Source: Blasia pusilla
Taxonomy: Eukaryota
Assembly (NCBI GenBank): GCA_050084515.1
Contig: CM114271.1
Location: 19,034,001 to 19,098,000, forward strand
DNA length: 64,000 bases
Direction of reading: 5' to 3'
Below the pieces are notes generated by a model. The model made no database searches and had not been told where the DNA came from. It saw only the letters and a list, made by a program, of their open reading frames with translations. Shown here piece after piece: positions 18,260-62,203 of this stretch; positions within the stretch are counted from its first letter, which is position 1, and each line of letters opens with the position of its first letter. Both the position numbers and the translations under genes were made by a program.

Positions 18260-19220
18260 TTGCACCAAGAAAATTTGCAATAAACTAATAGGGAAATACT
18301 CTTATAAATTTTACACAAATTTTGGAAACACTCCTATAAAAAGGTTGAACAAACTTCAAGGTAAGATCACATAGAAGGAAAAAAATAAAAATACACAAGT
18401 TATTTTTTCTTTCCCGATCTAATCACCAAGGTCTAAAATGACCTTTTCACTTTTTGACTCTTGTTTCAACATCCCTTTGCCATGAAATTTTGCAAGGTTG
18501 TTTGAAAGACTCTTATAAAAAAATGACAAAGCTTAAGGCAAGAGCATATACTTGGAAGAAATGAAAAATGCACAAGTTTGTGTTTCTTTCCCCATCTACT
18601 TATCAAGGTCTAGAATAATCTTTGTAGTTTTTGACTTCGGGTGTAACATTCATTTACCATAAAATTCTGCAAGGTTTTGCTAAACATTCATTTACAAAAT
18701 TTGAAATTTTTTTTAGGGAAAGATAAGATACAAGAAAAATAATGAAAAATACACAAGTCCTTTTTTCTTCCCCCATGTAATCATCAAGGTATGGAATAAC
18801 CTTTGCATTTTTTTAACTCTTTGTTCAAAATTCCTTTGCCATGAATTTTTTAAGGATTTTTTGAAACACTCTTATAAAGAAGTTGATAAAGTTTCAAGGT
18901 AAGAGCACATACTTGGAAGAGATGAAAAATAAAAAAGTCCTTTTTCCTTTTTCATCTAATCACAAGGTCTAAAATCACCTTTGCATTTTTGGACTTTTAG
19001 TTAAACATCTATTTGGAATTAAATTTTGCAAGGTTTTTAGAAACACACCTATAAAAAAGTTGGAAAAACTTTTAGGGCAAGATCATAAACAATAAAAAAG
19101 TTGAAAAGTACACAAGTTCTTTTCAATAATCACTACGGTCTAGAATGACCTTTGCATTTTTGGAATTTGGGTTTAACATCCATTTTCCATAAAATCCTGG
19201 AAATTTCTTGAAAACACTCA
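18260..19220 (+). repeat. Diverged tandem array, ~180-bp unit, ~5 copies
   Basis: AAAATACACAAGT...ATCACCAAGGTCTA(A/G)AAT.ACCTTTGCA recurs near 18385, 18565, 18745, 18925 and 19105. Confidence 0.88.
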
Positions 19221-19613
19221 TATACACACACTAATATCTCAACTAAGATAAACTAATATCTGAATATTTTTTTGGATGACAATCCAAAATCACTCATCTT
19301 TCACACTCAATAATATCTAGTGTATTGACCCTTTGGGAGTATCTATTGAGCCCTTGGTAAAATTTTTATGTTTTCATTTTATAAAGTGGATATTTTTTCC
19401 TTTTTCAAAATTTATATGTTATCATTCTGAATTCTCATCTTTTTTTTTGCATAATCATGTATGCTCAAGGCACAAAATTTTTATTTATATAAGGATAGAA
19501 ACTATGTTGTTCTTAAACAAATAGAAAAGTAGGAATCATACTAGAAAATAATAAAACATAAACAAGATCCTATAAGTAATCGCCTTATCGAAAATAAAGT
19601 AAATAGGGTACTA

Positions 19614-21839: not shown

Positions 21840-22098
21840 TAAGGTTGCACAAAAATTAACAAGTCCAACCATGTCCACGTACATGCCCAGCCCGCACGGT
21901 CGCACTTGAGCCCGCCGTGCAAACTTGGGTTGAGGGAGCTCGGGTATGCTTGGAAGCGAACAAGTCCGTCCCATGGACTGAATCTTTTGGACATGTCCAT
22001 CAACTCCATCCCATGAGCTTTGGGCGAGCTCCGGAACAGGCTCACGTGCGGGCCGCGGGTACATGGGCCCGTACGGACTTTGTCTATGTGCAACCCTA
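21840..22098. mobile_element. hAT-type MITE
   Basis: TIRs TAAGGTTGCAC / GTGCAACCCTA; TSD CCTAAGAG/TCTAAGAG (7/8). Confidence 0.88.
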
Positions 22099-22109
22099 TC
22101 TAAGAGGCT

Positions 22110-22588
22110 TGTCACATCTGAGTATCCGATAAGCCGAGATCTATTGTGGATAGGGCGTAGGAGCCAGCGGACTATCTTGAATGTAACTTTTTCCCACAGT
22201 ATCGGATGAGGTTGAGGATAGGTATATTGTGTCAGGAACGTCGTTTTTGCTAACGTTCATGTTGAGGTCTTTCACAGTCGGGTGACTTGTTGACCAGGTC
22301 ACCCGCCCCTGGTAACCTGTGCGCGCAGGTTACCAAGGGGATAGCTATTTTTAAGGGAAGAGCCTTTTGGCTCTTCCCAACCCTATATAAGAGAGGAAGA
22401 TGACTTTCCTAAGCCATCTTTCTCATGTTGGGCCGTCGGAGCACTTCTCTTGTATGTGTGTGAGATAGGACTAGGATGCTAGCGTCCGGATTCCTTGATA
22501 GCACAGGGTGGACGAGGCTCGATATGCTGATGTAAATTGAGGAGTGGAGTTTTAGGGTGTGCCATTTTTACTACTCTTTATTTTTACA
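22110..22588 (+). repeat. 5' LTR (segment B) of the Gypsy element
   Basis: TGTCACA...TTTTTACA; TATATAA at 22384-22390; homologous to 29639-30118 and 33335-33814. Confidence 0.88.
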
Positions 22589-22599
22589 TGAGAAAGATG
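22586..22599 (+). promoter_or_regulatory. Putative self-priming primer-binding site
   Basis: ACATGAGAAAGATG is the exact reverse complement of CATCTTTCTCATGT at 22415-22428, which begins ~31 nt after the start of the LTR TATA box. Confidence 0.6.
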
Positions 22600-24395
22600 T
22601 CAGGGGGCTGGTGGGAATTTATTGTTTGCGGGTAGGCTAGTGAGTTGCCTTGTTCGGGAGCCTAGGAGATGCGTGTGTTAGCCATTTTTCTGTTCGGAAG
22701 GGCGTGGGCGGAAGCGCTGTCCGTTTTTCTCAGATTTTTCTGGTGCAGATTGTCGAAGGAGAGCAGCAGGGTGTAAAAGGAAGTAAGCTTCCTTGGGAAT
22801 CTGTAGGAATGTTGGGAAATAGAGAGAAACTAGTTTTTAGGGCTTGCAGCCGCCGGGGGGCTGTTAAGTAAGGCGGTTAGGTCATAGCTGCCTAGTTGAT
22901 ACGTACGTACACGGCCAAGGTAGAGTGCGGGCGATTTTGGGTAGATCACGGGGGAGAATTGGGTGCAGCCGCACATAGTCAAGTCGCACAAAGGGAGGGA
23001 TGGGCCCCGCATAGGGCCGCGTGCCCCTACAGGGTCACGGCTCCATAGGGAGCCGTGCACATGTAGCTAAAGGAACAAGGCCGCGTCAGGCAGTAGGCGT
23101 GTAGGGGTCCGGAAGGAGTGAAGTGGGGAGGACACAGAGGCTCATAGGGAGCCGCGCACCCTGAAAGAAGGAAGGAAGGAGGTACGAGAGGAGCCATTAT
23201 GGCTCCTAGATAAGGGGGGGGTAGGGGCCATTATGGGCCCAAAATAGCTGGAATGCAGTTAGGGGAGGGCTGACAGCGTGAGGAGCCAAGCAGCAGTATA
23301 GCGCAACGTGCCCAAAGGAGAGTCGAACGGGGAGAGAACAAGGCCGGCCTCATAGGGCCGCGGGACTTCAACGGGAGTGAAGGGAGGGAGAGCTCTCCAT
23401 AGGGACTAGTGTGCAAGAGGTGAAGGAAACGGCACGAGGCGAGGACGCTCGGCTAGCAAAGAACGGGGTTGGAATTCATGAAGATAAGACGTCCACGCCC
23501 CCCTTATCTAGGAGCGGCTACCCCGTGGTTAACGGGGTAGCCGCATACACGTGGAGACTAGGTGGCTTGGCTACGTGGTAAGATGCTGACGTGGTGAGAG
23601 GGACATTTGGTTGCTGGGCTTACCACGTAGAGACCAGACGTGGAGTTAGGAGAAAAGAACTTGGTGGGGCAGGAGTTACATGGTTGGGCGGATGTGGTAG
23701 GTGGTTACCCAGGTCAGAGAATGGATGTTGCACTCATGTCGTTATGACTACAATCGAGATGGTTGTTTATACAAACAGTTTTCGGGGGAGAGTTGACGAT
23801 TGAGTGTTCGTGCGCATGATGCTGACGGGTTGTTCGCATCTATTGACGGGAGGATCGACGTGTTGGTCGAGGAGAATGTTGTGTTGGGGAGGTTGTCATA
23901 CCACATGGAGGAGTGAGTGCTGATGATACGTAGGTTGGAGGGCGTGATCAGATTACCCATTCTAGTCCCTTTTCCCGCACTTGTCGTGTATGATTGAGAG
24001 TGCTGGGTATCGGGTAGTAGCTGGTGCTAGGTGGGTGCAGTGATGGTGACGAGTGTAGATTATTTTCATGTGTAGCATGTTGGTGGATATACGGCAGTTT
24101 CCGCGTAGGGGCCGCATGTATGACCCGAGAGTATCGCTAGGTTAGGTAAGTCAGTTGGGAGGCTCATGGTGAGCCCGAGTGTTGAGTGTGCGTGAGGCCA
24201 GGTGTGTCATCACGGGATTGACATTAGCATAGGTGAGCTAGTGAGGCATGTGGGAGACTCTCGGTGAGTCTGAGTGCTTGAGCCGGTGAGACAAGGTTTG
24301 TCATCACGGCGTTCTTCCAAGGTTCGGAAGAACGGGGTAGTGCGAGCAGTGGTAGTGGTGTGACATGGAGTGGAGTGAGATACCGAGGGGTTACC

Positions 24396-25870
24396 AATGA
24401 GGAGCTCCCTCGACATCCATCCGTGACTGGATCGTCATCATTGGACACTGGGTCTGGTGACGAGATCACCGACAGAGACAGTAGTACTTGGCAGGAGATG
24501 GACGACATGGGCCATCGGGGCATGCGTTGATGTGGTGCAGTGGGCACCATCGACTTAGATGATTTCATCCAGGAGTTCGACATATGGTGCGACTTCCACG
24601 AGATACGGACCCCGACACGGTTCAACCCTTTCATGGCATGGAAGGGGTTGTTCCAGCACTTGGAGGGTCCTATGATGGATGACTACATGCAGTTTCGATC
24701 ACTATATTTAGTAGAGATCGATGCTTGGAAGATGTATTAGGCTCCAGGGTATGTGTCCACTAGTGGTCGTGAGGCATATGATGGGATCATGAGAGGAGAG
24801 AGACCCACACCATCAGCCGGGAGACTAGATGGAGAGGAGGGTAGTGAGACAGACGATGTGGCAAAGACCTCTGGTGGTAGAGGGCCACCCAGCTTCAGCC
24901 CCACGAGTGGAGTTCTTCTGACAGTTGGGGAAGAGCTACCATGGTGTACGCACCGATAAGTTGAAGAGTCTACAGGATTTTCAGCGACGATCGGGTGAGA
25001 CTTTGAGAGAGGCATTCACGCGCACGAGGAGGCTGATCATTGCTACGTATGGAGTGACTGAGGCGCAATCAATCTAGTATTGGTATGGGGTTCTGGACCA
25101 AGAACTACGGAGGAGAGTCCGAGATGTGGTGCTGATTCACACAGCGAAGCCCACATTGAAGGTGGTCTTTGAGTTGTTTGAGCGTATTGAGCTCAACATG
25201 AGTGAGGAGCAGGTAGTGACCGTTGGATTTTCTCGAGAGTCGACGGGTCCACGAGCGACGCTGACCCCACAGGTGCCACAACAAGCACTAGTACCACAGG
25301 AGCGGGCTGGTGTGCCCAGAGAGCAGGTCGTGTATTGTGAGCCTATGAGGCAATGACCCGTACCTACAGATGTTGCCCAACATGGACCGATGTGGTCTTG
25401 TTGGACGTGTGGAGGGGCCCATGGGCAGAGAGACTGCCCACATCATGGGAGAGGACCACGAGTGCCTCCGATTGCTCAGGAGCCACAAAGGATGGCTCCA
25501 CCACACCATCAGTGTGACCATTGCCACAGATATGGTCACACTAGGGATAGATATTTTGACCTTCGCCGAGGGGCACTTCTAGAGATAGGCCGAGGGCCTG
25601 GGGTCGGTCGTCTTGGAGGAGGTCGGGGAGTTCTTCCTGGACTTGGTGGTAGAGGACCACCATCAGCCAGAGGAGATGGAGCAGGAGTACCAAAGCCGGC
25701 ACTTCTCTCACGCATTGATCAGTTGGAGCAGAGGATTGCTGCCATGATGATGATGCAACTTAGGGAAGGCACGGAGCTGCGAGCACCTAGTGTGACTCTT
25801 GCTTCTACCTCTTACCCTGACCCGGGTGAGGATCTTGCTAGTATGGGGTTTATGTGTAGTGCAGCCTAGG
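24396..25870 (+). pseudogene. gag: Gypsy gag with frameshifts and stops
   Basis: DLDDFIQEFDIWCD..LFQHLEG capsid-like segment; knuckles CWTCGGAHGQRDC and CDHCHRYGHTRDRY (degenerate). Start approximate. Confidence 0.8.
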
Positions 25871-26357
25871 TTGAGGTAGCTGCAGTGGTGACTCGGGGTG
25901 CTGCGAGAGGCACCGAGCCATCGAGAGGTGGAGTTGAGATTGACCCACCAGAGGGGACCGATGGGCGGCAGGCCAGGGTTCCACAGTTGTTCACATTGTC
26001 GGAGGCACTACACACACCATCATTGGTGCCTCGACGACTAGCGGTGCCTACAGTTCAGGCACCTACGTCAACATCACGAAAAGTTGGAGTGATAGCTCCT
26101 ATGCCGGCTCGAGTGGAGTCAGAGTCGACCATAGCGTTGGAGGTGGCCACCAGAGTGAGTCAGACTCCGCTATTTTCCGCCATAGAGTTGGAGACGTTGG
26201 GAGTTGGACCAGCTGAGGTGTTCCGGTTGGCCGCCACATTGTGTAAGCGTGGAGAGATGACAGCTTCTTGTTCGGAGGTAGTTGAGGAGGTGGTGGACTT
26301 GCCCTCAGAGCCGGTGCTTGGTTCCCCACAGAGTCATGGCATGCGGAGGCGGCGAAG

Positions 26358-26860
26358 TTGGTAGATATGCCAGCTCGACCGGCCATAGAGCGAGCAGTGG
26401 TGACACCTGGAGTAGTGTTACTAGATAACCAAGCTGGAGTATTTCGCTTGGTTAGTCCGACAGGGACGGTATACCACCCGCAACCCGTCCTACTTGATTC
26501 GGGAGCGCAACCCTTGATGTTAGGGAAGGCGGCGTGTTTAGCGTTGGGGTTACAGAAGGCCGACATTGAGCCTTGTCCCTTCCAGATACAGACCTTGATT
26601 GGGGACGTATCACCCACTCAGTATATGACTCAACAGGAGATTGTTGTCAGAGTCCAGCCAGAGCATGCGACGGATAGTGCTATGGTGCGCACACGTGCAA
26701 TTACGACACCAATTGAGTCGTACGATGTGTTGGTGGGGAGTACAGTGTTATATCCCCTAGGATTCATCCTTGACTTATGGGAGGAGACCGTTGCTTATCG
26801 GCCAAGATGGCGGTCAGGTGACGGCCGGATGAGTCAGTTACCCGTGCAGTTTGCGGGACG
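26358..26860 (+). pseudogene. Retroviral-type aspartic protease domain
   Basis: VLLDSGAQPLML (Asp codon 26496) and downstream YDVLVG motif. Confidence 0.85.
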
Positions 26861-27092
26861 AGGTGGTCGATCACGAGGCGAGTCTGTGACCACGTTGGCG
26901 GCTTTCACAAGTAGTGTTAGCTGGCCAGGAGAGTTGTTGGAGGGGAACGCACATACGGAGGATGTCCCAGTAGCGGATAGTCCCACGGAGATACAGGCCA
27001 TGGCGGGTGTCTCTTCCCATGTTGGCGAGGCCTCTTCACCATTGTGGGGTACGACTTGTACCCCATTGTGGCTAACATTGTGGGGTATGAAT

Positions 27093-27685
27093 ATTTTGGG
27101 GGATAGATCGGTTCGGAGAGATTGCTTGTATCAGTAGCGGTTCTTACCATTTGGGTTGAAGAACGCGCCTGTAGAGTTTCAGAGAGTGATGGATAGGATT
27201 CTGGCTGGCTTGGATTTTGTACGATGTTACATAAATGATATTCTTATCTTCAGTTCCACGGTTGAGGAGCATGAGCGACACTTGGAGGAGGTATTTCGGC
27301 GATTTTAGTTACATGGATTGAAGTTACATCCAGGCAAGTGCAGATTCTTTCACGAGCTGATTGAGTACTTGGGACACACCATATACCCGAGTGGGTTAGG
27401 CGTTCAGCAGACGAAGGTAGAGGCTATTGTGCAGATTCCACGCCCTACAGATGTGAGTCGAGTCCGATCATTTCTTGGACTGGCGAACTTCTATCAACGG
27501 TATGTCAAGGGTTTTAGTTGGATCGCAAAGTCTTTGACCTTGTTGACGAGACTTGATCAGGTTTGGTTGTGGGGAGATGATCAGGAGCGAGCATTTCAGG
27601 AGCTCAAGGACAGATTGACGTCCTCACCCATTTTACAGATACCCGTTAGGGGTCGCCCATTCCAGTTACATACGGATTGGAGCAT
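27093..27685 (+). pseudogene. pol: Reverse transcriptase C-terminal half and RNase H start (copy 1)
   Basis: FWGID..DCLYQ*RFLPFGLKNAPVEFQRVMD...CYINDILIFS (YIDD decayed), KLHPGKC, EYLGH, FLGLANFY, FQLHTDWS. Confidence 0.92.
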
Positions 27686-27711
27686 TTAGGGTTTAGGGTT
27701 TAGGGTTTAGG
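27685..27711 (+). repeat. Telomeric repeat insertion (TTTAGGG)3+TTTAGG at a rearrangement junction
   Basis: Perfect plant telomere repeats interrupt RNase H right after ...GATTGGAGCA. Confidence 0.92.
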
Positions 27712-27737
27712 CTGCCCTCAACTCCCCCACCCTAAAG

Positions 27738-29423
27738 CCACATCTCACAATGGATGCTTATTTGGGCTCAGGGAGTCGATCTCAGGTGGTGACACGGGAT
27801 GATACACCACCATTGGCCATGGCCAATAGGGTGGGGGAGTTGAGGGCAGCCTTACCTACGTTGGTGAGATGACACTTGGAGGAGGTATTTCGGCGATTGC
27901 AGTTACATGGACTGAAGTTACATCCAGGCAAGTGCAGATTCTTTCACGAGCTGATTGAGTACTTGGGACACACCATATACCCGAGTGGGTTAGGAGTTTA
28001 GCAAACAAAGGTAGAGGCTATTGTGCAGATTCCACGCCCTACAGATGTGAGTCAAGTCCGAGCGTTTATTGGCCTAGCGAACTTCTATCGACGGTATGTC
28101 AAGGGTTCTAGTTGGATCGCAAAGTCTTTGACCTTGTTGACGAGACTTGATCAGGTTTGGTTGTGGGGAGATGATCAGGAGCGAGCATTTCACGAGCTCA
28201 AGGACAGTTGACGCGTCCTCACCCATTTTCTGAGATACCGTTAGGGGTCGCCCATTCCAGTTACATACGGATTGGAGCATGTTGGGTCTAGGAGCAGTGC
28301 TTACTCAGAGGGATGACGAGGAGAGGGAGTTCGTTGTGGCTTACGTGAGCCGATCGAAAAACATTGCAGAGGGGAAGTACAGCTCCTACGAGGGAGAGTG
28401 CTTGGCTGCAATGTGGGCCGTGGCACATTTTAGGTGCTATTTATTCGGCAACCCTTTCACACTTATCATTGATCATCAGCCGTTAAGGTGGTTGATGGAG
28501 TCCGACAAGCTTACGGGAAAGCTTGCTAGGTGGGCTCTATTACTACAAGAGTATGAGTTTGAGATGGTTCATAGGCCAGGTCGGCTGAACCAGGATGCGG
28601 ATGGGTTGAGTCGTAACCCATGTCCGAGTTAGAGAGATGACACAGGAGCTCGATGGCACGGAGAGAGTGATGAGGAGATGGTGCCCGGGTGGCATGCATC
28701 TGGCTATCTTTGTTGGTTGACTATGGTAGGTCAGCCACAGGTGAAGACTCCAGTGGTGGGATTGGATGATGAGTCTTTGGATCTGGAGGTTAGTGAGGAG
28801 GCGACAGGTGGTCGTGATATCCATGACGACGTGGAGGTTGTGGAGTTCTTGCGCACTGGCGTCATTGCGAGTACAGTGAGTGCTAGGGAGTGGGATCGGA
28901 TCCTACAGAGAGCCAAGAGGGTATGGGGAGATGGTAGGATACGAGTGGTACCTCATCCTTCCCAGCGAGCACGTGTAGTGCGACATGCCCATGAGGAGTT
29001 GGGACATTTTGGAGTAAAGCGTACTTACAGCTTACTCCAGGTTCAGTATTGGTGGCGCGGCATGCATATTGGGGTACAACAGTTTGTGGCCAGATGTATG
29101 GTATGTGACAGAGTGCGAGCATCCTACGTGTGCGCGAGGTATTACCGACCGGAGTCCTCATGTTGGAGGGACGGGATGGTATGGTTTGGAAGGATCATGT
29201 GCGCAATTGTGCGCCATGTCATCTTCTGAACGTAGATGGGACGGTGGATCCGAGCTTGGTAGTGGTACCTGCAGGCTTGAGGTGTATGTTGTGCGGATCT
29301 GCGAGGGGTGCAGCCATCATGTTGGTATGTGATGGTTGTTCTCGAGGGTGGCATATGTCATGTCTGACCCCCCCTCTTGATGTTGTTCCCACGGGACGAT
29401 GGATGTGTCCGAGATGTGTATAG
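27738..29423 (+). pseudogene. pol: pol copy 2: DNMT tail, RT end, RNase H, integrase Zn finger and PHD; integrase core deleted
   Basis: Near-identical to 30601-33120 but lacks the rve core (junction ~29124) and has a further short deletion at ~28920. PHD CMLC...CDGC...WH..C...WMCPRC is intact at 29283-29423. Confidence 0.9.
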
Positions 29424-29500
29424 GGTAGTAGGTCATGTCAGAGAGATGTGATATTTTCTATCTGGAGTTAGGGGGATCCAACTGCCAGCTAGGGGGCGGT

Positions 29501-30260
29501 TGTGTGATCTCTATGTATATGTATGAGTTGATTTTTGTACATGTGTGGATCGACCCGTGTGTGGGGAAGATCGGTGTTTTGTGGTGTAGATGTGACGAGC
29601 GATGTATGTTGTGTAGCGATATGTATGCGCACGATAGCTGTCACATCTAAGTAGCCGATAGGCCGAGATCTATCGTGGATAGGGCGTAGGAGCCAGCGGA
29701 CTATCTTGAGTGTAACTTTGTCCCACGATGTGGGATGAGGTTGAGATAGGTCCATTGTGTCAGGAATTTTGTTTCTGACAACTTTCATGTTGAGGTCTTT
29801 CATAGCCGGGTGACTTGTTGACCAGGTCACGCGCCCCTAGTAACTTGTGCGCGTCAGGTTACCAAGGGAAGGGCTATTTTTAGGGGAAGAGCCTTTTGGC
29901 TCCTCCCAACCCTATATAAGAGAGGAAGATGGCTTTCCTAAGCCATCTTTCTCATGTTGGGCCGTTGGAGCACCTCCCTTGTATGTGTGCGAGCTAGGAC
30001 TAGGGTGCTAGCGTCCGGATTCCTTGATAGCACAAGGTGGACGAGGCTCGATATGCCGATGTAGAATGAGGAGTGGAGTTTTAGGCCGGGTCTGCCGTTT
30101 TTACTACTCTTTATTTTTGTGAGTTGTGTGATCTCCATATATATGTATGAGTTGATTTTTGTACATGTTTTGATCGATCCGTGTGTGGGGAAGATCGGTG
30201 TTGTGTGGTGTAGATGTGACGAGCGATGTATGTTGTGTAGCGATATGTATGCGCACGACA
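29501..30260 (+). repeat. Internal LTR region, A-B-A layout (A 29501-29636, B 29639-30118, A 30125-30260)
   Basis: Direct comparison of the repeated segments; follows PPT-like AGGGGGCGGT. Confidence 0.9.
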
Positions 30261-30261
30261 G

Positions 30262-30735
30262 ATTGCTGGAGGGCCATGTTAGGGTCATTCGTCAGCTGGC
30301 CGAGGACTTGGATTGCAGGATCCGAGGTCAGGGATGTTTTGGGAGATGTTGAAAGTAGTACGACACTTGCAGGAGAGTCGGACATGTTCTCCACCATACA
30401 TTTTAGAGAATGTTCCGTGGTTGGGAGACACTCGTGCAAGTGTGATGCCAAGTGTGCATCAGGTGAGGTCTTGGTTGGGACCTGCTATGTTGTTAGATGC
30501 AGCGAGAGTTGGGTCACGTGCCCATCGTCTACGATTATGGTGGACGAATCTGATACCATCAGAGGTATTGAGTCGAGCATACGATGGAGTCGAGAGAGTA
30601 CCACATCTCACAATGGATGCTATTTTGGGCTCAGGGAGTCGATCTCAGGTGGTGACACGGGATGATATACCACCATTGGCCATGGCCAATAGGGTGGGGG
30701 AGTTGAGGGCAGCCTTACCTACGTTGGTGAGATGA
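30262..30735 (+). pseudogene. DNMT3-like cytosine-5 DNA methyltransferase fragment (motifs IV-VIII) inside the retrotransposon
   Basis: One frame reads IAGGPC*GHSSAGRGLGLQDPRSGMFWE (motifs IV/V; stop at 30280-30282 is CAG>TAG), YILENV (motif VI), and PAMLLDAARVGSRAHRLRLWWTNLIP (motifs VII/VIII). Confidence 0.88.
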
Positions 30736-33120
30736 CACTTGGAGGAGGTATTTCGGTGATTGCAGTTACATGGACTGAAGTTACATCCAGGCAAGTGCAG
30801 ATTCTTTCACGAGCTGATTGAGTACTTGGGACACACCATATACCCGAGTGGGTTAGGAGTTTAGCAAACAAAGGTAGAGGCTATTGCGTAGATTCCACGC
30901 CCTACAGATGTGAGTCAAGTCCGAGCGTTTATTGGCCTAGCGAACTTCTATCGACGGTATGTCAAGGTTTTTAGTTGGATCGCAAAGTCTTTGACCTTGT
31001 TGACAAGACTTGATCAGGTTTGGTTGTGGGGAGATGATCAAGAGCGAGCATTTCAGGAGCTCAAGGACATGTTGACGTCCTCACCCATTTTACAGATACC
31101 CGTTAGGGGTCGCCCATTCCAGTTACATACGGATTGGAGCATGTTGGGTCTAGGAGCAGTGCTTACTCAAAGGGATGACGAGGAGAGGGAGTTCGTTGTG
31201 GCTTACGTGAGCCGATCGAACAACATTGCAGAGGGGAAGTACAGCTCCTACGAGGGAGAGTGCTTGGCTGCAATGTGGGCCGTGGCACATTTTAGGTGCT
31301 ATTTATTCGGCAACCCTTTCACACTTATCATTGATCATCAGCCGTTAAGGTGGTTGATGGAGTCCGACAAGCTTACGGGAAAGCTTGCTAGGTGGGCTCT
31401 ATTACTATAGGAGTATGAGTTTGAGGTGGTTCATAGGCCAGGTCGGCTGAACCAAGATGCGGATGGGTTGAGTCGTAACCCATGTCCGAGTTAGAGAGAC
31501 GACACAGGAGCTCGATGGCACGGAGAGAGTGATGAGGAGATGGTGCCCGGGTGGCATGCATCTGGCTATCTTTGTTGGTTGACTATGGTAGGTCAGACAC
31601 AGGTGATGACTCCAGTGTTGGGGTTGGATGATGAGTCTTTGGATCCCGAGGTCAGTGAGGAGGCGACAAGTGGTCGTGATATCCATGAAGACGTGGAGGT
31701 TGTGGAGTTCTTGCGCACTTGCGTCATAGCGAGCACAATGAGTGTTACGGAGCGGGATCGGATCCTACAGCAAGCCAGGAGGTTCAGGTGGGAGGGGACT
31801 CATATTTTGCGGGTATGGGGAGATGGTAGGATACGAGTGGTACCTCATCCTTCCTAGCAAGCACGTGTAGTGCGACATGCCCATGAGGAGTTGGGATATT
31901 TTGGAGTAAAGCGTACTCACAGGCTTACTCTAGGTTCAGTATTGGTGGCGCGGCATGCATATTGGGGTACAACAATTTGTGGCCAGATGTATGGTATGTG
32001 ATAGAGTGCGAGCATCTTTCAATGTTCCCACTCCACAGTTACATCCTTTTCCGATTATGGGTTTAGGTTATTGGTGGAGTTTAGACTTTGCGGGACCTTT
32101 GCCATTGACGGGGAGTCATCATAGGTACGTGTTGATCATGGTGGAGCATTTCTCCAAGTGGATAGAGTTGGTGGCACTATCGGATAAGGCGAGCGAGGGA
32201 ACAACTTATGGGTTTCTAGGTCGTGTGCTTAGTCACTTTGGTGCACCGGTGGAGTTTTGACTGACTAGGGTACCGAGTTCAAGGGAGAGTTTCAGACCTT
32301 GTGTGATCAGGCGTTGATAGATCACCGTACCACGTCCAGAGATCATTCTGAGGCGGATGGGTTGGCGGAGAGAGTGGTACAAACGATGAAGAGAGGGTTG
32401 CGCAGGTATGGCTTGCAATGGGGACTGTTGAGGGAGTGGGACCTACAGTTGCCATGGTTGGCTATGGGTTATCGCTTTAGAAGGCAGGCATCTTTGGCAT
32501 CATTTTCACCTTACTTTTTGCTCTTTGGGAGAGAACCAGATTTACCTGCAGCCATTCAACGCAACATGGCGGAGGTGTTAGATCTTGATGATCCAGATGT
32601 GTGGGTACAAGCATGTTCTCAGAGGGCGGAGGTTTTTCGTAGAGTTATGCCTATGGCCTTCAAGAACTTAGCTATTGCTCACCATAGAGATACATTGAGG
32701 TATGCAACCATTCGTGGAGGAGGTTATCCTCCACGGATTAGGAGGTTTCATCTTAAAGATTACGTGTATTTAGAGCAGGCGGCACCCATGACGCTAGATG
32801 TCAGTGCAGGACGCACGATCCTACATGTGTGCGAGGTATTACCGACCGAAGTCCTCATGTTGGAGGAACGGGATGGTATGGTTTGGAAGGATCATGTGCG
32901 CAATTGTGCGCCATGTCATCTGCCAAACGTAGATGGGACAGTGGATCTGAGCTTGGAAGTGGTACCTGCAGGTTTGAAGTGTATATTGTGCGGATCTGCG
33001 AGGGATGCAACCACCATGTTGGTATGTGATGGTTGTTCTCGAGGGTGGCATATGTCATGTTTGACCCCCCCTCTTGATGTTGTTCCCACGGGATGATGGA
33101 TGTATCCGAGATGTGTATAG
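30736..33120 (+). pseudogene. pol: pol copy 3: RT end, RNase H, integrase (HHCC and rve DDE core) and C-terminal PHD finger, with multiple stops
   Basis: HEELG..G...WWRGM...C..CDR; WSLDFAGPLP, VEHFSKW, LTD*GTEF, ADGLAERVVQTMK; PHD from 32980 with a TGA stop at 33094. Confidence 0.93.
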
Positions 33121-33198
33121 GGTAGTAGGTCATGTCAGAGAGATGTAATATTTTCTATGTGGGGTTGGGGGAATCCAACCGGCAGCTAGGGGGGCGGT

Positions 33199-33952
33199 TG
33201 TGTGATCCACGTATATGTATGAGTTTATTTTTGTACATGTGTGGGTCGACCCGTGTGTGGGGAAGATCAATGTTGTGTGGTGTAGATATGACCAGCGATG
33301 TATGTTGTATAGCGATATGTATGTGCACGACAACTGTCATATCTGAGTAGCCGATAGGCCGAGATCTATCATGGATAGGGCTTAGGAGCGAGAGGACTAT
33401 CTTGAGTGTAACTTTCTCCCACAGTATCGGATAGGTTGAGGATAGGTCCATTGTGTCAAGAACGTCATTTCTGACAACTTTCATGTTGAGGTCTTTCACA
33501 GCCGGGTGACTTGTTGACTAGGTCACCCGCCCCCTTGGTAACCTGTGCGCGCAGGTTACCAAGGGGATAGCTAATTTTAAGGGAAGAGCCTTTTGGCTCT
33601 TCCCAACCCTATATAAGAGAAGAAGATGGCTTCTTAAGCCATCTTTCTCATGTTAGGCCATTGGAGCACCTCTCTTGTATGTGTGTGAGATAGGACTAGG
33701 GTGCTAGCGTCCGGATTCTTTGATAGCACAGGGTGGACGAGGCTCGATATGGTGATGTAGATTGAGGAGTGGAGTTTTAGGCCGGGTGTGCTATTTTTAC
33801 TACTCTCTATTTTTGTTGTGTGATCTTCATGTATATGTATGAATTGATTTTTGTACATGTGTGGATCAACCCGTGTGTGGGGAAGATCGGTGTTGTGTGG
33901 TGTAGATGTGACCAGCGATGTATGTTGTGTAGCGATATGTTTGCACACGACA
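33199..33952 (+). repeat. 3' LTR region, A-B-A layout (A 33199-33332, B 33335-33814, A 33817-33952)
   Basis: Same organisation as 29501-30260; ends ...GCACACGACA. Confidence 0.9.
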
Positions 33953-36227
33953 GTCTTGTGACAACATTATGATTCTTCATAGATCTTAACCATCATGAGC
34001 ATTTTACACCTTTGGTAATGAGTTGTTATGAGATGAGAAATTTTGGATGCCATTTTGCAATATGCTGTTGGTGCGGTGAGCCAAAATTTATGTGTTTCTT
34101 TTGTATTTCATCTCAATTGATCCCACTTAACTTGACTTAAGTTGAAGTGTTTTGGACTTGACTATAATATGACCCTAACCGTTAAGAAATATTGAAGCCC
34201 TTGCAAAATATTTTGGAAGAGTGAAGATTAACGACATGCAATAAATGATGTATAGTAAGATTATTTTGTAGGTCATCATGCTAATTTTCCAATTTAATTC
34301 AAGTTTTTGAAAATTTGCATTGAGGCCTTTTAAACTAGGCTAAATATTTTTTGAGAGCTTTATGAAGAAATTCATCATGAAATTATTCCAAAACTCTTAA
34401 GCACGTGTGACCCATACAATCCAAAATAATATATTATGAAACATCATGGAGATCCTCGTAGATAGTGTATTTGTCTTTTTTTAGAAGATGAACATAAGGA
34501 AGGATTAAAAGATTTAATGTAAAAGTGGGTTTATGTAATATTATTCAGCTCATTAACCTAGTATTAGCTTGGAATTATATAAAAAATCACATTCAAGTGC
34601 CCTCTATAGTAAAAGAAGTACCCTCATACTTTACGAATTCTCTACTGAAAATAATAAAATTCATTTCCCACGGACCCTGTAGTAGTCTCTAATAACAACT
34701 CCAAATCCATTGATGAAACTAAATTTCTTTGGACTTAGAGGAAACATAAGTAATTAGGAGAAAAGTAGTTGAATGTGTTATTATTTTGTTTGTACCATAT
34801 TATATAATCGACATTGCAAAACTACTAGGGAGAGTGAGAAATAATTGAATAGTGAAAAAATATTACCGGGTGAAAACTGATTAGGTGTTCAAAGGAATCC
34901 ATCTTTATTAGTTTATTATACAAATAAAAGAGTTAGTGATATTTGTGTCAGAATCTCAATTACTTTACTATCCCTACATTTTATTATCATTTCTCCTTTT
35001 GACACGTCTTTTTTAAGCCTATAAAATCATTTTTTTAAAGTTAATAGGATCATTCAAATTCAATTGAATAAGTAAAAAATATTTAATGGAATATCATAAT
35101 ATTTTGGCATCTAATTATTTTTCCAAAAGTGTAAAAATTAAACTATAAATACCATACGAAACAATTTAACTAATGTAATGACATATTTATAAGATCCAGA
35201 ACCACATGTAATTGAATCGTTTCATTCTTAAAACGTAAGAAAAAAGTTGGGAGTGGAGGTGGATACCTCGAATGCCAGATTTCCTTTAATTTCGTGTCAT
35301 CGTTCGAATGCACATATTATTATTACATCAGAATAAAATAAAAACGAAATCACCGTTTGTTCTCCACGTGAATTCTTCCCCTAATATAGTCCGTGTTCAG
35401 CGTCTATTCGGGCTCTAAAACCCCAGATTCTGCCTAGCTTATTTTTGGGGTTTTAGACCCCGCCAAAAGGTGGGGTGGAGGACTAGGTAGAGGAACTGAC
35501 GCAAAAGCCCTCGCGAGGCGAGGGCAGGTTCACGAAAGTCGCTGGTGATGTTGACTCGCGTCAACGCGCTAGATATGGCCAGTTGATGATGACGGAAAAC
35601 TGCAGATTTTATCGAGCAAGGGCGTTGGCTCTACGGGTACTTTGTGCATGGAAGAATGGATGAAAGGGAGAAGTTCACGGAGCGGAGGGCGTCGCACGTC
35701 GGCAGTTAATTATGCCGTGCATTTTGCAGAGCACGAGTTTCAGCACGTGCATGCTCGAGTCTCCACTGACGAATTCCCAGTTTCCCGCAGCTCCTTGACC
35801 AAAAACACGCCTCTTTCTGGACAATCAAAAGTCCGCTTCGCATGATTAGCTTTCGGGATGAACGAGTACCCGTCGAGCGCGCAGTCGATCTACAAGAGTC
35901 ACGAGACGGAGAGCAACTGGACTGTCACCATCCGCGTACTGTGCGCACGACCTGTTCGGATTCGAATCATCGCTCCGGACTCCGGATCGGCGGGTCAACC
36001 GTCACATGGAAGCATTCCATTGCCTCATGTAGAGTTCGGGCGTCTCAAGATCCTCGCCGGACCGTAACGTTCGTGTTTCCGGAGCCGAGTCGATCGCGAT
36101 CGAGTTCAGTGTACGCTGTGGGATCCAGTTCAGAACGATGCAACGGAGACGGGATCTGAACTCGTCGTCTTTGGTCGGGCCCTGGCCCTTGTGGGAATGA
36201 GAGGATGACTGACGCCTCGCGTGAGTG

Positions 36228-36572
36228 CGTCCAGGTGTTTAGGGTGTGTGCGCGTCACTCTGAATGGAAAGCCCGCTGCAAGAGAATCCCTCGGACCCTC
36301 ACGATAGCCGTAGAACTGGCCAGTAGACGTGGAGAACTGGCTGACAAATCCACTCCCTCCTCTTTTATGGCTGCTTGGATGCGTCCAGGTGTGTGCGCGT
36401 TGCTCTGAATGGAAAGCCCGCTGCAAGAGAATCCCTCGGACCCTCACGATAGCCGTAGAACTGGACAGTAGACGTGGAGAACTGGCTGACAAATCCACTC
36501 CATCCTCTTCCATGGCTGCTTGGATGCCGATGACTGACAAACCACTCCCTCCTCTTCCATGGCTGCTTGGAT
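36228..36572 (+). repeat. Recent local tandem duplication (~150-bp unit x2 plus a partial ~40-bp third copy)
   Basis: CTCTGAATGGAAAGCCCGCTGCAAGAGAATCCCTCGGACC...ATGGCTGCTTGGATGC is repeated almost exactly. Confidence 0.9.
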
Positions 36573-38329: not shown

Positions 38330-41300
38330 TCTCTATCTATATATATTTTGGACTGATTTTATTATTTTTGTCATGCTTTCTCAAAATCACGTATCATGTG
38401 ACTTCCCTTGTCTTTGATGACTTGCTTACTTTTGTCTCTAAGGTATCAGAGAGAGACGGAGTTGGATATTCTATCTACTTGCACCTCTCGTTTTGCAGGC
38501 CTTCCTAACCTTTCTCCCTAGTACCCCTCCTTATCATAGATCTGGCCATTTTCCTCCCTACGCTAATTCACCCATTACACTCGTTGCATTTCTTACACAC
38601 TCTCCTCGTCTCCCCTCTTCGTCTCGTCCTATTGAGCCTAATCTTGATCCATTATTATCGAATCCTACTGTTTTGCCATCCTCACATATCTCATATGTGC
38701 CCTCGCTTCCAACTCCCATCTATTCTACCCTATTCTCTCCTCTTCCTCCTCCTCCTTCCCCAACCTATTACCCCCTCATCGTCATCCATGATCACCTCGT
38801 GCACCTCCCACCTCCTCTTCATGTAATCCTTCTATTTCTGCATTTGTGCCAAAGGTTTGTTGCATTCCTTATAATAAGGAGTTTGCTCCTAATTGGATCA
38901 AAAGACATCTGCGGTATTGTTGATCCATGCATGGGCCTTTAATCCCTATACCCGATACCACCTCCTACTGCACTGCCCACATCAAATGCTTGGACTTGGT
39001 TAAGCCAAATTGATCTCCTTCGCTCTTTCCATCCAGGTCTTCCTCATCCTAAACTCTACACCCGCATTCTTATTTCTTTTCGCCCTATAACCCAACAAGC
39101 TTTATTTTTCCTTTTAGAAAGGTTAGCATATAATCCCATAAATATCATTGCTTGGGATCTCCTATTACTCTTCCCACAATGGGTTTTAGTCCTTCCTCTA
39201 AGGGGTGGTGCGATGGATCATCGTGAAATCCCTCCGCGTATTCAGATCTTTATGTCTGGAGATTGAAAGAATCTTCATAATGAGCATGTACTTCGAGCAG
39301 AGGCATTAGTTGCGGCTCATCCTGCTCAACATGATAATCATGGGAGGCCTTCTATACAACAATGTCTTTTGACCAAGTCTACTTTTGGGGCAAGTTGATG
39401 AGTTTCTACATCGGAGTCTAGATTCTCTTGGTATCGATTAGCATATTTTCCAATTAGGGGTGAAAGTCCCTCTCTCATATCATGCTTTATATTTCCAAGA
39501 CTTCCACTTGCAAAGTGAAAACAATAGTCTCAATATATGAAGCTCTTCACAGTCCTTCTAGTTGTTATGCATCACCTTTTGTGGAAGGCTATACAATGGA
39601 TCTTGACTTGGAGGTTCTTAGAAGGACTATTCTTCATACTCCTCGCTTATTAGGAAGCACGCTATCAAGGATGGTTTTTGAGCATCTCCACGATTGCTTT
39701 ATCCCTGATGATTGAGCAAATGGCTTGGTCTCTTTGTATAAGGTGTGTGCACATATTGCGGTATGTCGTCTCCCATTCTCTATCTATAGGCTCTTAGGGG
39801 CTTGTGGATTGTTGGCTATGGATAAGCCTCCTTTAGGTGTCCGCCCTTTGGCTATTCGAGAGGTTTTATACCACTTGGTTAATCGATCCATGTGCTTGCG
39901 ATTTCGTCCTCACTTTAGTTCCCACTTATTTCCTCATCAATTTGGAGTGGCATCCCCTAGTAGTTGCGAGGCTCTCATGCATGGGATTTGCTCTACTCTT
40001 GATATTCATCCAAAGTGGGTAGCAATTCAATTCGATGTGGCTAACGCATTCAAAATCGGTTTCCCGTGCGGCCATTTTTGAAGAGTTATGCTATGTAGGA
40101 GGACAACTTGCGAGTCTCATTCCATTTTTTCGCTCCGTCGTCTATGCCTATGATACACCCATTATCTATTCTTGTCATGGTACTTCCAGTGAATTTAGTA
40201 TTCTCCAATGAGCTTGTGGCACGCGTCAAGGTGATCTCATGCGTGCCCCGCTCTTTGCCATTGCCTATGTTTGTGCCCTTTGAGCATCAACCAAAGTATT
40301 TCCATCTTGTCTTTTCCCTTCTATTTATGATGATACTCACATTATAGGTCCTCCTTTTGAAGTGGTTTCTGCTTACATCCATCTTGTGGAGCAACTCTCT
40401 TTCTTAAACCTTAAAGTCCAACCTAGTAAATATCAGGTACGATCCCTTCATGACTTCCCTCAACATTCATCTCATATACTCTTGATTTTCCCATCTGCAT
40501 TGAATGGGTTAGGGTTCTTGGGATCCTAATTGGCTTTATCGACCATGTCTTGAAGTTCTTGGATGAGGCCCTTTTGAAAGATGTGGAATGACTTCATTTG
40601 TTACTTCATCTAGGGGATCCCCAAGTGGCTTATGGGATTCTCACCCAAGATTTTCTATAATATTCTTCTTACCTTCTTTGCTCTTGTCCTCCCACTTCAA
40701 GGTTCTTACATCGGTTGGCCTTTTTTGACGCTTCTATCTTGACAACTTTTGTCAACTTCTTGGTCCAAATACATTTGAGGGAGAGGATGGTGTCTTGACT
40801 TCACGACAAGCTATCTTGCCTATTTCTTTTGGAGGGGTGGGGCTTTTCTCCACAGTTGCATCTGCTCCAGCAGCTTATTTGGGGAGTTGGGCATTGGTGA
40901 TACTCATTATGACTTCAAGGTTTCTTAAAGGAGATACACCTATCTTGATGGATCATGTTGCCCATGTAGAGAAGGGGGACCTATTATTTCAACAACAACA
41001 GAGGTGTGCCCGAGCTCTTCTTCTTCTTGCTACACAAGAAATTCTACCCCTTTTAGTCAATAGATTATGGAAGAGCATATCTCGGGGAATTTGCACAAAA
41101 TCAAATTTTCTAGCATTCTCTCTTAGGCATCCTCTGACGTTGATCGAGCTCATCTACGTTCTTGTGCAGGAACAAGAGCAAGGGCGTGGCTTATTGCAAA
41201 TACACTTATTTTTCCATTTCCTCTTCCTTGAAGTTAATTCTCGACAGCTTTGCGGTTACGCCTTAGACTTCCCCATCCTTCTCTATTAGATGTGTCAAAT

Positions 41301-43020: not shown

Positions 43021-44649
43021 GAAATTAGATATAATTAAGTCGATTCGGAGCATATTTGTCTATACCCTATAAATGAACTAATAGGCCGTTCACTGCCCGA
43101 GTTGGGAGGCTCCTCAACGGGTACCTACACACGAGTCCCGTTTTCTGGGAAGGGCAATTTTTTAGGGACGCCTAGTTTTTCTTCTTTCGGAAGAATATTA
43201 TTATTATTATTTAGTAATTCCACTCGTGTGGACTACACGGAATTTCCTCCGTCCCCGTATTTGTTCTCCGTCGGGAGGAAATGAGTGGCCCTAATCATTT
43301 CCTTACGCCGCTCGACTCGCGATAGTCCCGCCTGATGTGAACTAATCGTGAAGAGCTCCGACGTCACATTTCACATCACGTACATTAATCCGCTTAATCG
43401 CCTGCGCTTTGTTAGCGAGCCAGGAGAATTCCGTACGTCAGGTCAACGTTTTTAATATATCGACTTCTGCGACGCCCTGTGCAGTTTGGGAGAATCCCGT
43501 TGGAAAGGCACCTTGACCTGCATATCCTCCGTCCGACATGGGTGGACCGGAGTTTCCGTGTACGCTTCCGCGCCCCCCCCCCCTCCCCCCACTCTCCTTG
43601 TCTGCATACAGTTTGATGAAGCACTGTGGTCACCAACAATGTTCACGGCCACTTTCCTGCTTGTTTCTCCGTATTGCGAGGACTGCGCCCACGAAGTCTC
43701 TTGCTTCCGCCACCAGAAAGTCCGTGTCGACGTCCGAAGACCCGGATTCGGAGATCAGGTAAAAGATTCACGTGGTCAATATGTTCAGAACAATTTCACT
43801 TATGAGATCGACTTCAGAGGCTCTCATGATCGAAGATGACTCTAAGAAGGCGAAGACGATTTTTACTGGAGATGTTCATAGACACACATGAGAGTCTTGA
43901 GATCAATTTCAGTCAAGATTTGAGAGTTCGATCGAGTCCGGGACAAAGTGATGAAAACCTGCACGTCGCGCTGGGCGATCTGGGCCGGGAACCGCACGAC
44001 GTACATATTCATACTCCGTTCTCAGAGATCGATGCCGAGAAAAGATCGGGTGGCGGCGCCGTGAATCCCCAGGCGGCTGCTGCGGCGGATGGCAGTCCCG
44101 AACTGCATGGACTCACTCGATGCGGGCACGAAGCATGCTACGTGGAGAGCTGCAGGGCCTCGCACACAAGCCCACCTTTTGGACATTTGATTGTGTCCAA
44201 TCGAAGTCAGGTTTGAGCTCGGACTCGGATCTTTGGTCTGGAATTAATTGAAAGCCATGAAAAAATAAAATAATGAAAGAACTTAGAACTTATGTAACTG
44301 TTTTTTTGTTGTCTGGTGGGCGAACTACTTCCGAAGAGAGGCCGATTCCAATCTCTTGTGATCTTCGCTCGTCAACCTTGGAGCTCAAGAAATTCAAGCT
44401 CCGGGGCGGGGGGGGAAGGGGGGAAGTGTAAGTTGCCTGGCCACTTGCTACAAACGTCCGTCCGGAATGGGAAATGTATCCAATAATTACAAAAAGGTCA
44501 ATGATAGATCTTTATCGGGATTCTACACTGGTAAGAACCCACTGAACACGTGCGCCGAAACATGACCACGTAAAGCTGTGGAAGCGTTCGTTATTTTCCA
44601 GTCGGAAACCCCAACATTTCGGAGTTCATCCGCATTTTACTGCATAGAC

Positions 44650-46119
44650 ATGTCTACCATGAAGAAACGGGGTCTGCTCCAGGCTGTGGGGATTATCATC
44701 GTCCAGCTTATTTGCGATCGGTTGAGTCTTACCGACGCCGCGTCAGCGTGGGAGGTTGAGACATGGACAAACTCTCATGCCACTTTTTATGGTGACTACG
44801 GTGGTGGAGCAACCATGGGTACGTAGATCGCGAATTTCGCATAAGATCGTCATTGACGCTTTATCCATCGATAATAGTCTAGGGCCTTGAACTTTCAGAT
44901 GCTGTGACAATCATGATTAACACCGTCAATCTCGTGTGACTGACTCGACTCGACGAGTTGCTGTACAGATTCAATCTATGGAGCAACTCGTCGAGACAGC
45001 CGTGGCGAACTAGAGAGCATGATCGATGAAGAAGTTCCCGTCTCATCCAGCCTATCCAGACTGTGGAGTTATAATCCATGTGTTGTGTTAGGGCGAAACT
45101 GAATGCTTAGGGCCTTGTGCACTGGAAGGATCGGGGGACGCGTTTTTCTGACAGCTTGAAAGTTTGTGCTTTCTAAGCAGGTGGTGCATGCGGATATGGA
45201 AATCTTTGGACGCGTGGGTATGGGCTGGAGACGGCTGCCTTGAGCGACACTCTTTTCAATAAGGGGCTCGCTTGCGGCGCTTGCTTTCAGCTGAGATGTG
45301 ACCTTGCTTCTGGAAGCTACAGCACAAGGTGGTGCAATAAGGATACTCCTGTCATTCAAGTCACGGCGACCAACAACTGCCCTGCCAACTGGAACCGACC
45401 GACCAACGACGGTGGCTGGTGTAATCCGCCCAGAACTCATTTTGATTTGCCGCTGGCCATGTTTTCCAAGATGGCGCAACCTGTCGCCGGCATCATCCCT
45501 GTCAACTACCGCAGGTATTGTCCCAATCAATTTCTCGGCAGTTCCAGGCCTCCAGACGATCGAATTGAAAGTTGTTGATGGTACGGCATTCAGATTCGTC
45601 CTCAGTTCATGAGTAATATGTTACCTGGAACCATGCATGCCGGTGTTGAATTTCAACTCGGTGCGTGAACCCTCCCAAATCCGACTTCTTCTTCTTGTCA
45701 CACGATGGCCGAGGCCCACACTTACACTAGACTGCGATAGCGTCGAACGCACTAACCTGAGTTTTGATACATGCCTGATCTGGATCTCGGTACATGCGTT
45801 TTTGCTCAGGGTTCCATGCCAGAAGGAAGGAGGGATCAAATTCTTTCTTGGTGGAAATCCTTGGTTCAACCTTGTGCTGGTTTTCAACGTCGCGGGAGCT
45901 GGGGATGTGACGGGCATGAGAATGAGGGGAGATAAAACCGCATGGTGCACTATGAAGCATAACTGGGGCCAATTTTGGCAGTGCCCAATCAAATTAACTG
46001 ACCAGAAACTGTCATTCCAGGTCACTTTGAGCAATGGCTCCGTTCGAGTCATTAAAGATTTAACTCCAAGAAACTGGTCCTTTCAACAAACTTACGAGGC
46101 GTCGACGAATTTCTTGTGA
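44650..46119 (+). CDS. EXPA: Alpha-expansin paralogue, 3 exons (44650-44818, 45181-45514, 45810-46119), 270 aa
   Basis: Same motifs ([32 protein letters not shown]), GT..AG introns at the same positions, and the same exon lengths (169/334/310) as the gene at 1361-2778. Confidence 0.96.
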
Positions 46120-61932: not shown

Positions 61933-62203
61933 CATACTCGTCTCCACTTCCAAACAACCGTTATCTTAAAGAAGGATTTCCTTGCTACACACCCAGCTAC
62001 CCATGGATATTCAACTTGGAGTAAGGTTAGAGGAGCAGATTAGTTTTGTATGATTGCATGCACATTTAAGGATCTGATTTCTTGGGTGCACTAATAGAGC
62101 TAAGCGTTATTTCAAGAAAGATGATAGCATGTATATGGCCTTCCTATTACCATCTATATCAATGCTTAGGTTGTCATCGCCAATCCATGCATTGATATAG
62201 ATA

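Follow-up and report, generated by a model that had tools for sequence, protein, structure and literature searches.

Can a retrotransposon carry a histone reader and a DNA methyltransferase (DNMT) that work as one unit? The question is raised by a 64,000-nucleotide stretch of the liverwort Blasia pusilla (GCA_050084515.1, contig CM114271.1, positions 19,034,001 to 19,098,000; the whole stretch is here called the window, and positions are counted from its first letter). An initial annotation, made from the sequence alone, had described a PHD finger at the end of a retrotransposon pol frame, a second, broken copy of it, and a possible DNMT3-like reader-writer pairing with the methyltransferase of the same element. 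Both fingers sit in two adjacent, badly rearranged, dead copies of one Ty3/Gypsy-type retrotransposon. At the level of the family, sequence comparison indicates that the pairing of PHD and DNMT is real and conserved; a functional coupling of the two is unproven. Judging from sequence and structural model, the C-terminal PHD is probably an integration-tethering module of the integrase, comparable to the chromodomain of other Ty3/Gypsy elements.

The PHD finger and its likely ligand

The finger of copy 1 (29283-29420, + strand) translates into a complete C4HC3 pattern, C-x2-C-x11-C-x2-C-x4-H-x2-C-x14-C-x2-C, whose eight zinc ligands lie in the blocks CMLC...CDGC-SRGW-H-MS-C...CPRC and are followed by a valine and a TAG stop codon at 29421-29423. 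It matches Pfam family PF00628 far beyond chance and along the entire 47-position profile (E 2.7e-11; score 43.7 bits, cut-off 24), in agreement with the canonical finger first described. The finger of copy 2 (32980-33120, +) differs from it at 7 of 141 bases, every one a transition. One of these, CGA>TGA, makes the stop codon already seen in the initial annotation (33094-33096), and another, TGT>TAT, replaces the seventh zinc ligand, Cys, by Tyr; the part before the stop still scores 33 bits against PF00628. Cys>Tyr and Trp>stop changes are also found in many decayed relatives. Two other identities were ruled out by Pfam. The finger is a plain, single canonical PHD and not an ADD domain, the combined GATA-like and PHD architecture being absent from the window frames and from 16 relatives, and it is not a chromodomain but occupies that place; scanning the window frames and the 16 relatives with Pfam brought up no chromo family.

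With the integrase C-terminus of copy 2 as query, 170 relatives were retrieved, 120 of them listed (proteins are numbered P, related loci L). PF00628 is present in 116 of the 120 in the precomputed Pfam list, and 111 show the full C4HC3 ligand pattern. Named sources among them are Marchantia polymorpha (73% identity), Calypogeia fissa, Haematococcus lacustris, Pleodorina starrii and Tetrabaena socialis, and many M. polymorpha 'hypothetical proteins' are pieces of the family (P0004, P0123-P0136; for example, Mp_7g09570, Mp_8g17980 and Mp_4g09160). The finger follows a GPY/F-like motif and a barrel, the terminal position at which chromoviruses carry a chromodomain, as had been proposed. It ends the protein in 31 relatives (1-15 residues after the last Cys), and in 80 others 24-473 residues without a Pfam match lie beyond it. 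In the green-algal clade (P0045-P0122; L024, L038, L040, L044 and L048), full-length open reading frames (ORFs) have a post-finger tail of ~300-470 residues, also without a Pfam match. The statement that the finger ends the pol frame thus holds for the family and fails for copy 1. There a deletion has removed the core of the integrase together with most of its C-terminal domain (approximately residues 1148-1415 of relative P0018) and H2C2 (ORF 28633-29229) lies in another frame, so the finger is out of frame with the integrase.

Conservation was assessed in an intact set formed by the window's last 104 residues and 15 intact locus translations, drawn from 57 tblastn rows in 55 loci of which the others had stops, had lost ligands or left the contig. 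All eight zinc ligands are invariant in 16/16 sequences at an overall identity of 36-51%. Three close pairs give dN/dS values of 0.13-0.34 for the finger, weak evidence given 46 codons and a small sample; distant pairs are saturated. A P-C-H motif 21 residues upstream of the finger, within CAPCH at 29208-29222 and 32905-32919, is also invariant in 16/16 sequences; it may form an extra metal site, in a region of low model confidence. In a quick-search tree of 56 rows built from reverse transcriptase (RT), RNase H and integrase, the PHD-bearing rows split from three PHD-less Gypsy rows with 99% support (Shimodaira-Hasegawa-like approximate likelihood ratio test, SH-aLRT). The finger is ancestral to the whole clade.

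Among sequence matches to solved structures, for which the best 60 of the 93 at E ≤ 0.01 were considered, the leading ones are CHD4, PHF12, DPF2/3, KDM5A/B, MLL3, PHF21A, ATXR5, KAT6A/B, BAZ2A/B, AIRE, UHRF1/2 and ORC1b. An AlphaFold (AF2) model has a mean predicted local distance difference test score (pLDDT) of 75.3, rising to 83-92 in the finger, and Foldseek returned 26 matches to it with E ≤ 0.001. The model finger superposes on the second finger of DPF2/3 at 0.4-0.7 Å with 44-46% identity and on the set of DPF2/3, BAZ2A, ATXR5 and BHC80 at 0.4-1.0 Å; further fold matches include BAZ2B, KDM5B and UHRF1, and several Foldseek entry titles name unmodified H3 or H3K4 peptides. Readers of trimethylated H3K4 (H3K4me3) that use a methyl-lysine cage carry a cage Trp two residues before the zinc-binding His. 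Of 111 family members, 102 have Gly at that position and none has Trp. The finger therefore falls, by sequence and model, with the PHD subclass that reads the unmodified H3 tail, in which it resembles the second finger of DPF2/DPF3, BAZ2A/B, ATXR5, the first PHD of KDM5A/B, PHF21A (BHC80), CHD4 and UHRF1 (E 7e-16 to 1e-8; root-mean-square deviation 0.4-1.4 Å; 35-46% identity), sharing CD-x-C, CL-x-PPL and P-x-G-x-W and lacking the cage Trp. Unlike these domains of cellular chromatin proteins, several of which have an acid-rich loop, the finger of the window's clade is without such a loop, and its binding is predicted. Most likely it binds the H3 tail with K4 unmethylated, in line with the likeness to cage-less H3K4me0 readers noted at the outset.

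The methyltransferase partner across the family

Precomputed Pfam lists report PF00145 in 9/120 listed proteins, against a DNMT in 46/120 by phmmer with the family's own DNMT domains, and so under-call the element enzyme. Two arrangements occur. In type A, on the liverwort side, the DNMT lies between protease (PR) and RT (P0018, P0022, P0060 and 44/77 metagenome loci); in type B, on the green-algal side, the order is RT-RNaseH-DNMT-integrase-PHD, found also in six loci and as single open frames of 2006-2182 residues in L024, L038, L040, L044 and L048. In the tree, an algal clade of 28 rows (100% support) unites type B with its few DNMT-less members, and the proteins nearest the window group with P0018 among type A (98% for the sub-clade). 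By sequence comparison the window belongs to type A. Its nearest loci are L059, L008, L021 and L015 for the integrase tail (62-74%) and the same four plus L001 for the DNMT fragment (62-65%), and the nearest loci read gag-PR-DNMT-RT-RNaseH-integrase (INT)-PHD.

Co-occurrence of the two domains, a check that the initial annotation had called for, bears out the pairing, full-length relatives carrying both. A DNMT is present in 25/26 proteins with an RNaseH-to-H2C2 gap of 541-799 residues, the exception being P0097. Where the gap is short (107-354 residues; 34 proteins), most sequences begin ~120 residues before RT, so type A is not judgeable in most of them, but the three that reach at least 340 residues upstream of RT all carry a DNMT. 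Thus 28/29 proteins that span a possible DNMT site have one; P0103 and P0104, with a short RNaseH-integrase gap, were left in the untestable group. Among loci, a DNMT is found in 36/38 that bear a PHD and have room for the enzyme (exceptions L033 and L060, whose ORFs hold a PHD and no DNMT), and a PHD in 37/39 that bear a DNMT and have room for the finger (exceptions L034 and L066), in a set that is biased because loci were ranked by likeness to a DNMT-bearing query. Searching in reverse from the L021 DNMT ORF introduces no bias as to the finger; of the 60 proteins recovered, many of them Marchantia polymorpha gene models, 24 have an integrase, and PF00628 is present in 21 of these 24. Both domains share a single ORF in P0018, P0053 and the ORFs of L024, L038, L040, L044 and L048. 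L002 and L004 were considered as DNMT-less loci and rejected; the final 22-58 residues of the DNMT ORF survive in them, which makes them deletion derivatives. The DNMT-less rows L033 and P0097 fall within the 28-row algal clade. A tree holding the 24 DNMT-bearing type B rows together, a group named after seeing the tree, was not rejected by the approximately unbiased (AU) test (p 0.37), so loss of the DNMT in these members is not demonstrated.

The enzyme itself is best seen in L021, where a complete DNMT ORF of 449 residues has its best solved matches in DNMT3A (the top one, E 5e-11, residues 51-355), DNMT3B and DNMT3C, with M.HhaI far behind at 1e-3. On these matches the element methyltransferase is DNMT3-like over the whole catalytic domain. 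Motif IV Pro-Cys and motif VI ENV are kept in type A, and most type B enzymes have Glu-Cys at motif IV. One Sphagnum fallax gene model matches the element DNMT at 68% identity. Neither window copy holds an intact DNMT, copy 1 being without the whole catalytic domain and copy 2 retaining a fragment only, and at this locus neither PHD nor DNMT is functional any more.

Between the gag-PR-DNMT and RT-RNaseH-INT-PHD frames, 9/9 loci have an in-frame stop codon, TAG in seven and TAA in two (L001, L002, L003, L004, L008, L015, L021, L059 and L072; L021:11198-11200), in the context KVFA-stop-QPMA; the junction is deleted in both window copies. The stop is probably read through. In L021 the codons that follow it are CAA CCC, like plant read-through contexts.

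The family is transcribed at a low level. Three RNA-seq runs gave 129, 127 and 154 reads at least 95% alike on 22000-34000, of 10.1, 12.0 and 11.1 million records, and 125, 116 and 144 of these reads are only 95-99% alike and hence derive from other copies. The first mate is mostly on the minus strand, and depth is ~4-8 over 28.4-30.0 kb, the finger included. DNA contigs of a sequencing run pile up heavily on the element, as expected for a high-copy repeat.

Proposed roles: tethering, reading and writing

An intact element, as shown from relatives, reads gag - protease - DNMT3-like enzyme - in-frame stop - RT - RNase H - integrase - PHD between split repeats B...A-B-A. In active elements the PHD would anchor the integrase-cDNA complex on nucleosomes by way of the H3 N-terminal tail, and its preference for unmethylated K4 would steer insertion away from active promoters marked by H3K4me3, much as the chromodomain of chromoviruses steers insertion towards H3K9me chromatin. 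The methyltransferase would be a separate module that methylates the element's own new DNA, a role suggested by the available text of PMC5890265. Chromoviruses such as MAGGY carry a chromodomain at the integrase C-terminus (10.1101/2021.11.30.470311 and PMC6673714, in the text available). The present family is like them in having a small histone-reader domain after the GPY/F region at the integrase end, with a presumed tethering role, and unlike them in that this domain is a zinc-binding PHD, whose mark is likely the unmodified H3 tail and not H3K9me. Tethering is the most likely function because the finger is ancestral, stands at the place of the chromodomain, is constrained and is present in frames that have no DNMT (L033 and L060).

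The proposal that PHD and DNMT form one reader-writer unit, in which the finger would locate nucleosomes with H3K4me0 and there guide or activate the enzyme as the ADD domain does in animal DNMT3, is possible but doubtful. It draws on the strong and reciprocal co-occurrence of the domains in proteins, in the reverse search and in the biased locus set, on the persistence of the pairing when the DNMT changed position between two clades, and on a DNMT3-like catalytic domain whose motifs are kept in the liverwort-side clade; in the algal clade the DNMT directly precedes the integrase, so that a DNMT-INT-PHD protein is conceivable. As in animal DNMT3, a DNMT3-like catalytic domain and a K4me0-type finger are present in one element, and to this extent the initial annotation stands. 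However, the finger is a single PHD without ADD architecture, PHD-bearing ORFs without a DNMT exist, and in the window's clade the domains lie at least 900 residues apart across the in-frame stop, with no autoinhibitory contact indicated. Since the stop, RT, RNase H and integrase separate DNMT and PHD, an intramolecular reader-writer of the DNMT3 type is not indicated, and protease processing would probably part the two further. An arrangement in trans, in which PHD and DNMT cooperate within the integration complex and have been kept together from chlorophytes to liverworts and a moss despite relocation of the DNMT, strikes us as unlikely. Here the finger would place the complex on promoter-free chromatin and the enzyme would methylate the new copy or its surroundings, the element thus writing its own silent state and mimicking host DNMT3 logic.

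The remaining alternatives concern the ligand. Some PHD fingers read H3K4me3. A finger that reads such a methylated mark and steers insertion towards active promoters would be consistent with one Foldseek row, the UHRF1 PHD crystallised with an H3K4me3 peptide, but no cage-type reader was found among the best 60 of 93 sequence matches or among the Foldseek rows listed, and the position of the cage Trp is nearly always Gly; we regard this reading as very improbable. It is also improbable, if less so, that the finger is no histone reader at all and instead binds a host protein or nucleic acid or merely stabilises the integrase C-terminus. The invariant P-C-H upstream, which hints at an extended zinc module, and the missing acidic loop of the nearest solved relatives are compatible with such a role, but the finger has 44-46% identity and a sub-ångström fit to the H3-binding second finger of DPF2/3, and its CD-x-C ... 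CL-x-PPL ... P-x-G-x-W-x-CP-x-C signature is common to H3-tail binders. Several points nevertheless weigh against tethering through unmethylated K4. The loop between ligands 2 and 3 has a mean of 2.5 acidic residues in the algal clade and of 1.1 acidic and 1.8 basic residues in the window's clade; because the latter is without the acid-rich loop, the exact ligand is uncertain, and the K4 pocket of this clade may differ, with another tail state or another protein as its ligand. The linker between barrel and finger has a pLDDT below 50 at residues 36-50 of the model. The near-universal DNMT partner could mean that PHD and DNMT are functionally tied, a tie that pure tethering does not need. Finally, the strand call of the RNA reads presumes a standard stranded library.

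The pairing is only partly new, Gypsy-DNMT3 elements and PHD-bearing transposons having been published already, and the window element is a dead member of the known Gypsy-DNMT3 kind. In KnitGypsy-Dnmt3 of Klebsormidium nitens, an intronless DNMT3-related methyltransferase is part of a Gypsy-type pol polyprotein, and the legend of Fig. 4 describes DIRS-like terminal repeats with Gypsy-like domains (de Mendoza et al. 2018, PMC5890265, available text); 'Gypsy-DNMT3' of streptophytes is also named in the accessible part of 10.64898/2026.05.21.726589. Compared by description, the present family shares with KnitGypsy-Dnmt3 the DNMT3-related enzyme inside a Gypsy polyprotein (a fragment in the window, complete in L021) and the DIRS-like repeat arrangement (the window and six locus sets), and differs in its host, a liverwort-like land plant rather than a charophyte alga. 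Neither the main text nor three supplementary files of PMC5890265 contain the word PHD, figures lying outside this search, and KnitGypsy and integrase likewise have no occurrence in the three supplementary files. No Klebsormidium sequence appears by name among the relatives listed in the integrase-tail or DNMT search. PHD is described as a common and recurrent accessory domain of retrotransposons in the available text of PMC6673714, PMC8557442 and 10.1101/2021.11.30.470311, which agrees with the earlier caution that a PHD alone may not be new. According to the portions available, PHD fingers are also borne by CR1 long interspersed nuclear elements, REM1 and other Chlamydomonas elements, Chlamys Penelope-like elements and cnidarian PYGO-like fusions, which belong to other element classes and carry the finger at other positions than this family; REM1 is reported to have a truncated, reversed integrase with a chromodomain (PMC2774666, in part). 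In the literature text searched, which held general statements only, no description of a PHD-DNMT3 pairing or of a liverwort PHD-tailed integrase was found.

Element copies, their surroundings and significance

The element block (~22.1-34.0 kb) is G+C-rich with a strong G-over-C skew; over 22000-34000 the GC skew is +0.18 to +0.29, with T over A. The Pfam families PHD, RNase H, H2C2, rve, RVT and DNA_methylase are arranged in the order of Gypsy elements, the window is colinear with related locus L021, and the PR-RT-RNaseH-INT order with H2C2 and a DDE core is that of Ty3/Gypsy. The integrase core is deleted in copy 1, reaches rve scores of 22-26 bits, under the Pfam cut-off, in the broken frames of copy 2, and is clear in relatives. 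Copy 1 spans 22110-30261 and copy 2 30262-33953; all their features are on the + strand.

Copy 1 opens with the 5' terminal repeat B1 (22110-22590), which starts TGTCAC and is 90-91% identical to 29639-30118 and 33335-33814. A gag-like N-terminal region in broken frames follows (24573-25239; tblastn with the first ORF of L021, 50-56% identity), then the C-terminal part of gag with a zinc knuckle and the aspartic protease (25723-26735, LLDSGA at 26490-26507; tblastn with the second ORF of L021) and the linker between protease and DNMT ORF (26735-27017; tblastx to L021 9524-9802). After the linker ~1.9 kb is gone, and with it the whole catalytic domain of the DNMT, the in-frame stop and the N-terminus of RT; matching resumes at residue 182 of the L021 RT ORF with the C-terminal part of RT and the start of RNase H (27075-27698; tblastn), including the active-site motif YIND at 27228-27239. 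The motif is YIND in copy 1 and L021, and YIDD in the consensus of aligned relatives. A remnant of the end of the DNMT fragment (27738-27866) precedes a second copy of the RT C-terminus (27873-28202; tblastn), and 27738-28920 is 96% identical to 30601-31782. RNase H (Pfam in ORF 28234-28632; PF17917, 118 bits) and the integrase H2C2 (28984-29106; PF17921, 60.6 bits) lie in 28177-29127 (Pfam and tblastn), with the core deleted after them. The last three strands of the integrase C-terminal barrel (29109-29282, by alignment; AF2 model strands 7-11, 16-20 and 26-30) include CAPCH and lead into the finger with its valine and TAG (29283-29423; Pfam, alignment and model). Copy 1 ends in a split direct repeat (29499-30261) of A1 (29499-29638), B2 (29639-30122) and A2 (30123-30261), preceded by a purine-rich tract ending at 29498; RNA reads diverge into unlike sequence past 30260 and before 29639.

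Copy 2 begins with the DNMT3-like fragment (30262-30729; PF00145, 24.3 bits), in which motif IV GGPC, followed by a stop codon, motif VI ILENV and RLRLWWTN are recognisable; it is 62% identical to residues 139-293 of the L021 DNMT ORF and is missing motifs I, IX and X. RT C-terminus, RNase H, H2C2, core and the GPY/F-like FSPY (32503-32514) follow with stops and frameshifts (30736-32979; Pfam and tblastn), then the broken finger (32980-33120; Pfam and base comparison) and, by repeat comparison, a 3' split direct repeat (33197-33953) of A (33197-33332), B (33335-33814) and A (33815-33953).

The ends are not plain long terminal repeats (LTRs). A 480-bp unit, B, marks the 5' end, and the 3' end of each copy is built as A (140 bp)-B-A, with the purine-rich tract immediately before the first A. 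Split repeats take the place of the two identical LTRs of Ty3/Gypsy elements, in the two window copies as well as in six sets of related loci, B...A-B-A recurring in L006, L019/L030, L028, L035/L036, L043 and L046. These split repeats occur in an element with a DDE integrase, and their layout is the one that a two-LTR circle gives when it is opened between A and B (A|B). The B unit begins TG and A ends CA-G. No target-site duplication was recognised at the window copies.

Two expansin genes (DPBB_1 plus Expansin_C) at 1227-2790 (-) and 44638-46249 (+), inverted and ~42 kb apart with exons 76-85% identical, flank the central part of the window, which is rich in transposons. One of their exons has its best named matches in Marchantia polymorpha and M. 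paleacea (72%) and Riccia fluitans (57%), which points to a host that is a liverwort or close to one but is neither of these two Marchantia species. A tandem array of five ~177-181-bp units occupies 18306-19230, where the DNA immediately before the element is A+T-rich; the other tandem repeats are a 145-bp pair at 36243-36527 and a short-period array at 60384-60648. Other mobile debris, comprising an RT fragment and hAT-like pieces with DUF659 and the hAT dimerisation domain, lies at 39716-40078, 50510-51037 and 52255-52662, and a 300-bp repeat occurs three times (9628-9943, 11375-11690 and 61634-61939; 87-90% identical, one inverted).

At this site the finding is only a relic; its value is for annotation, the gene models concerned being transposon debris. 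The family is abundant in liverwort genomes, and it brings together in one element a reader of histones, an enzyme that methylates DNA, ends of the DIRS type and a stop codon that is probably read through. If reader and writer do cooperate, it would provide a natural compact model of DNMT3-style targeting and also a source of small chromatin-targeting modules. The chromatin tools that retrotransposons carry with them show how mobile DNA negotiates with host silencing.

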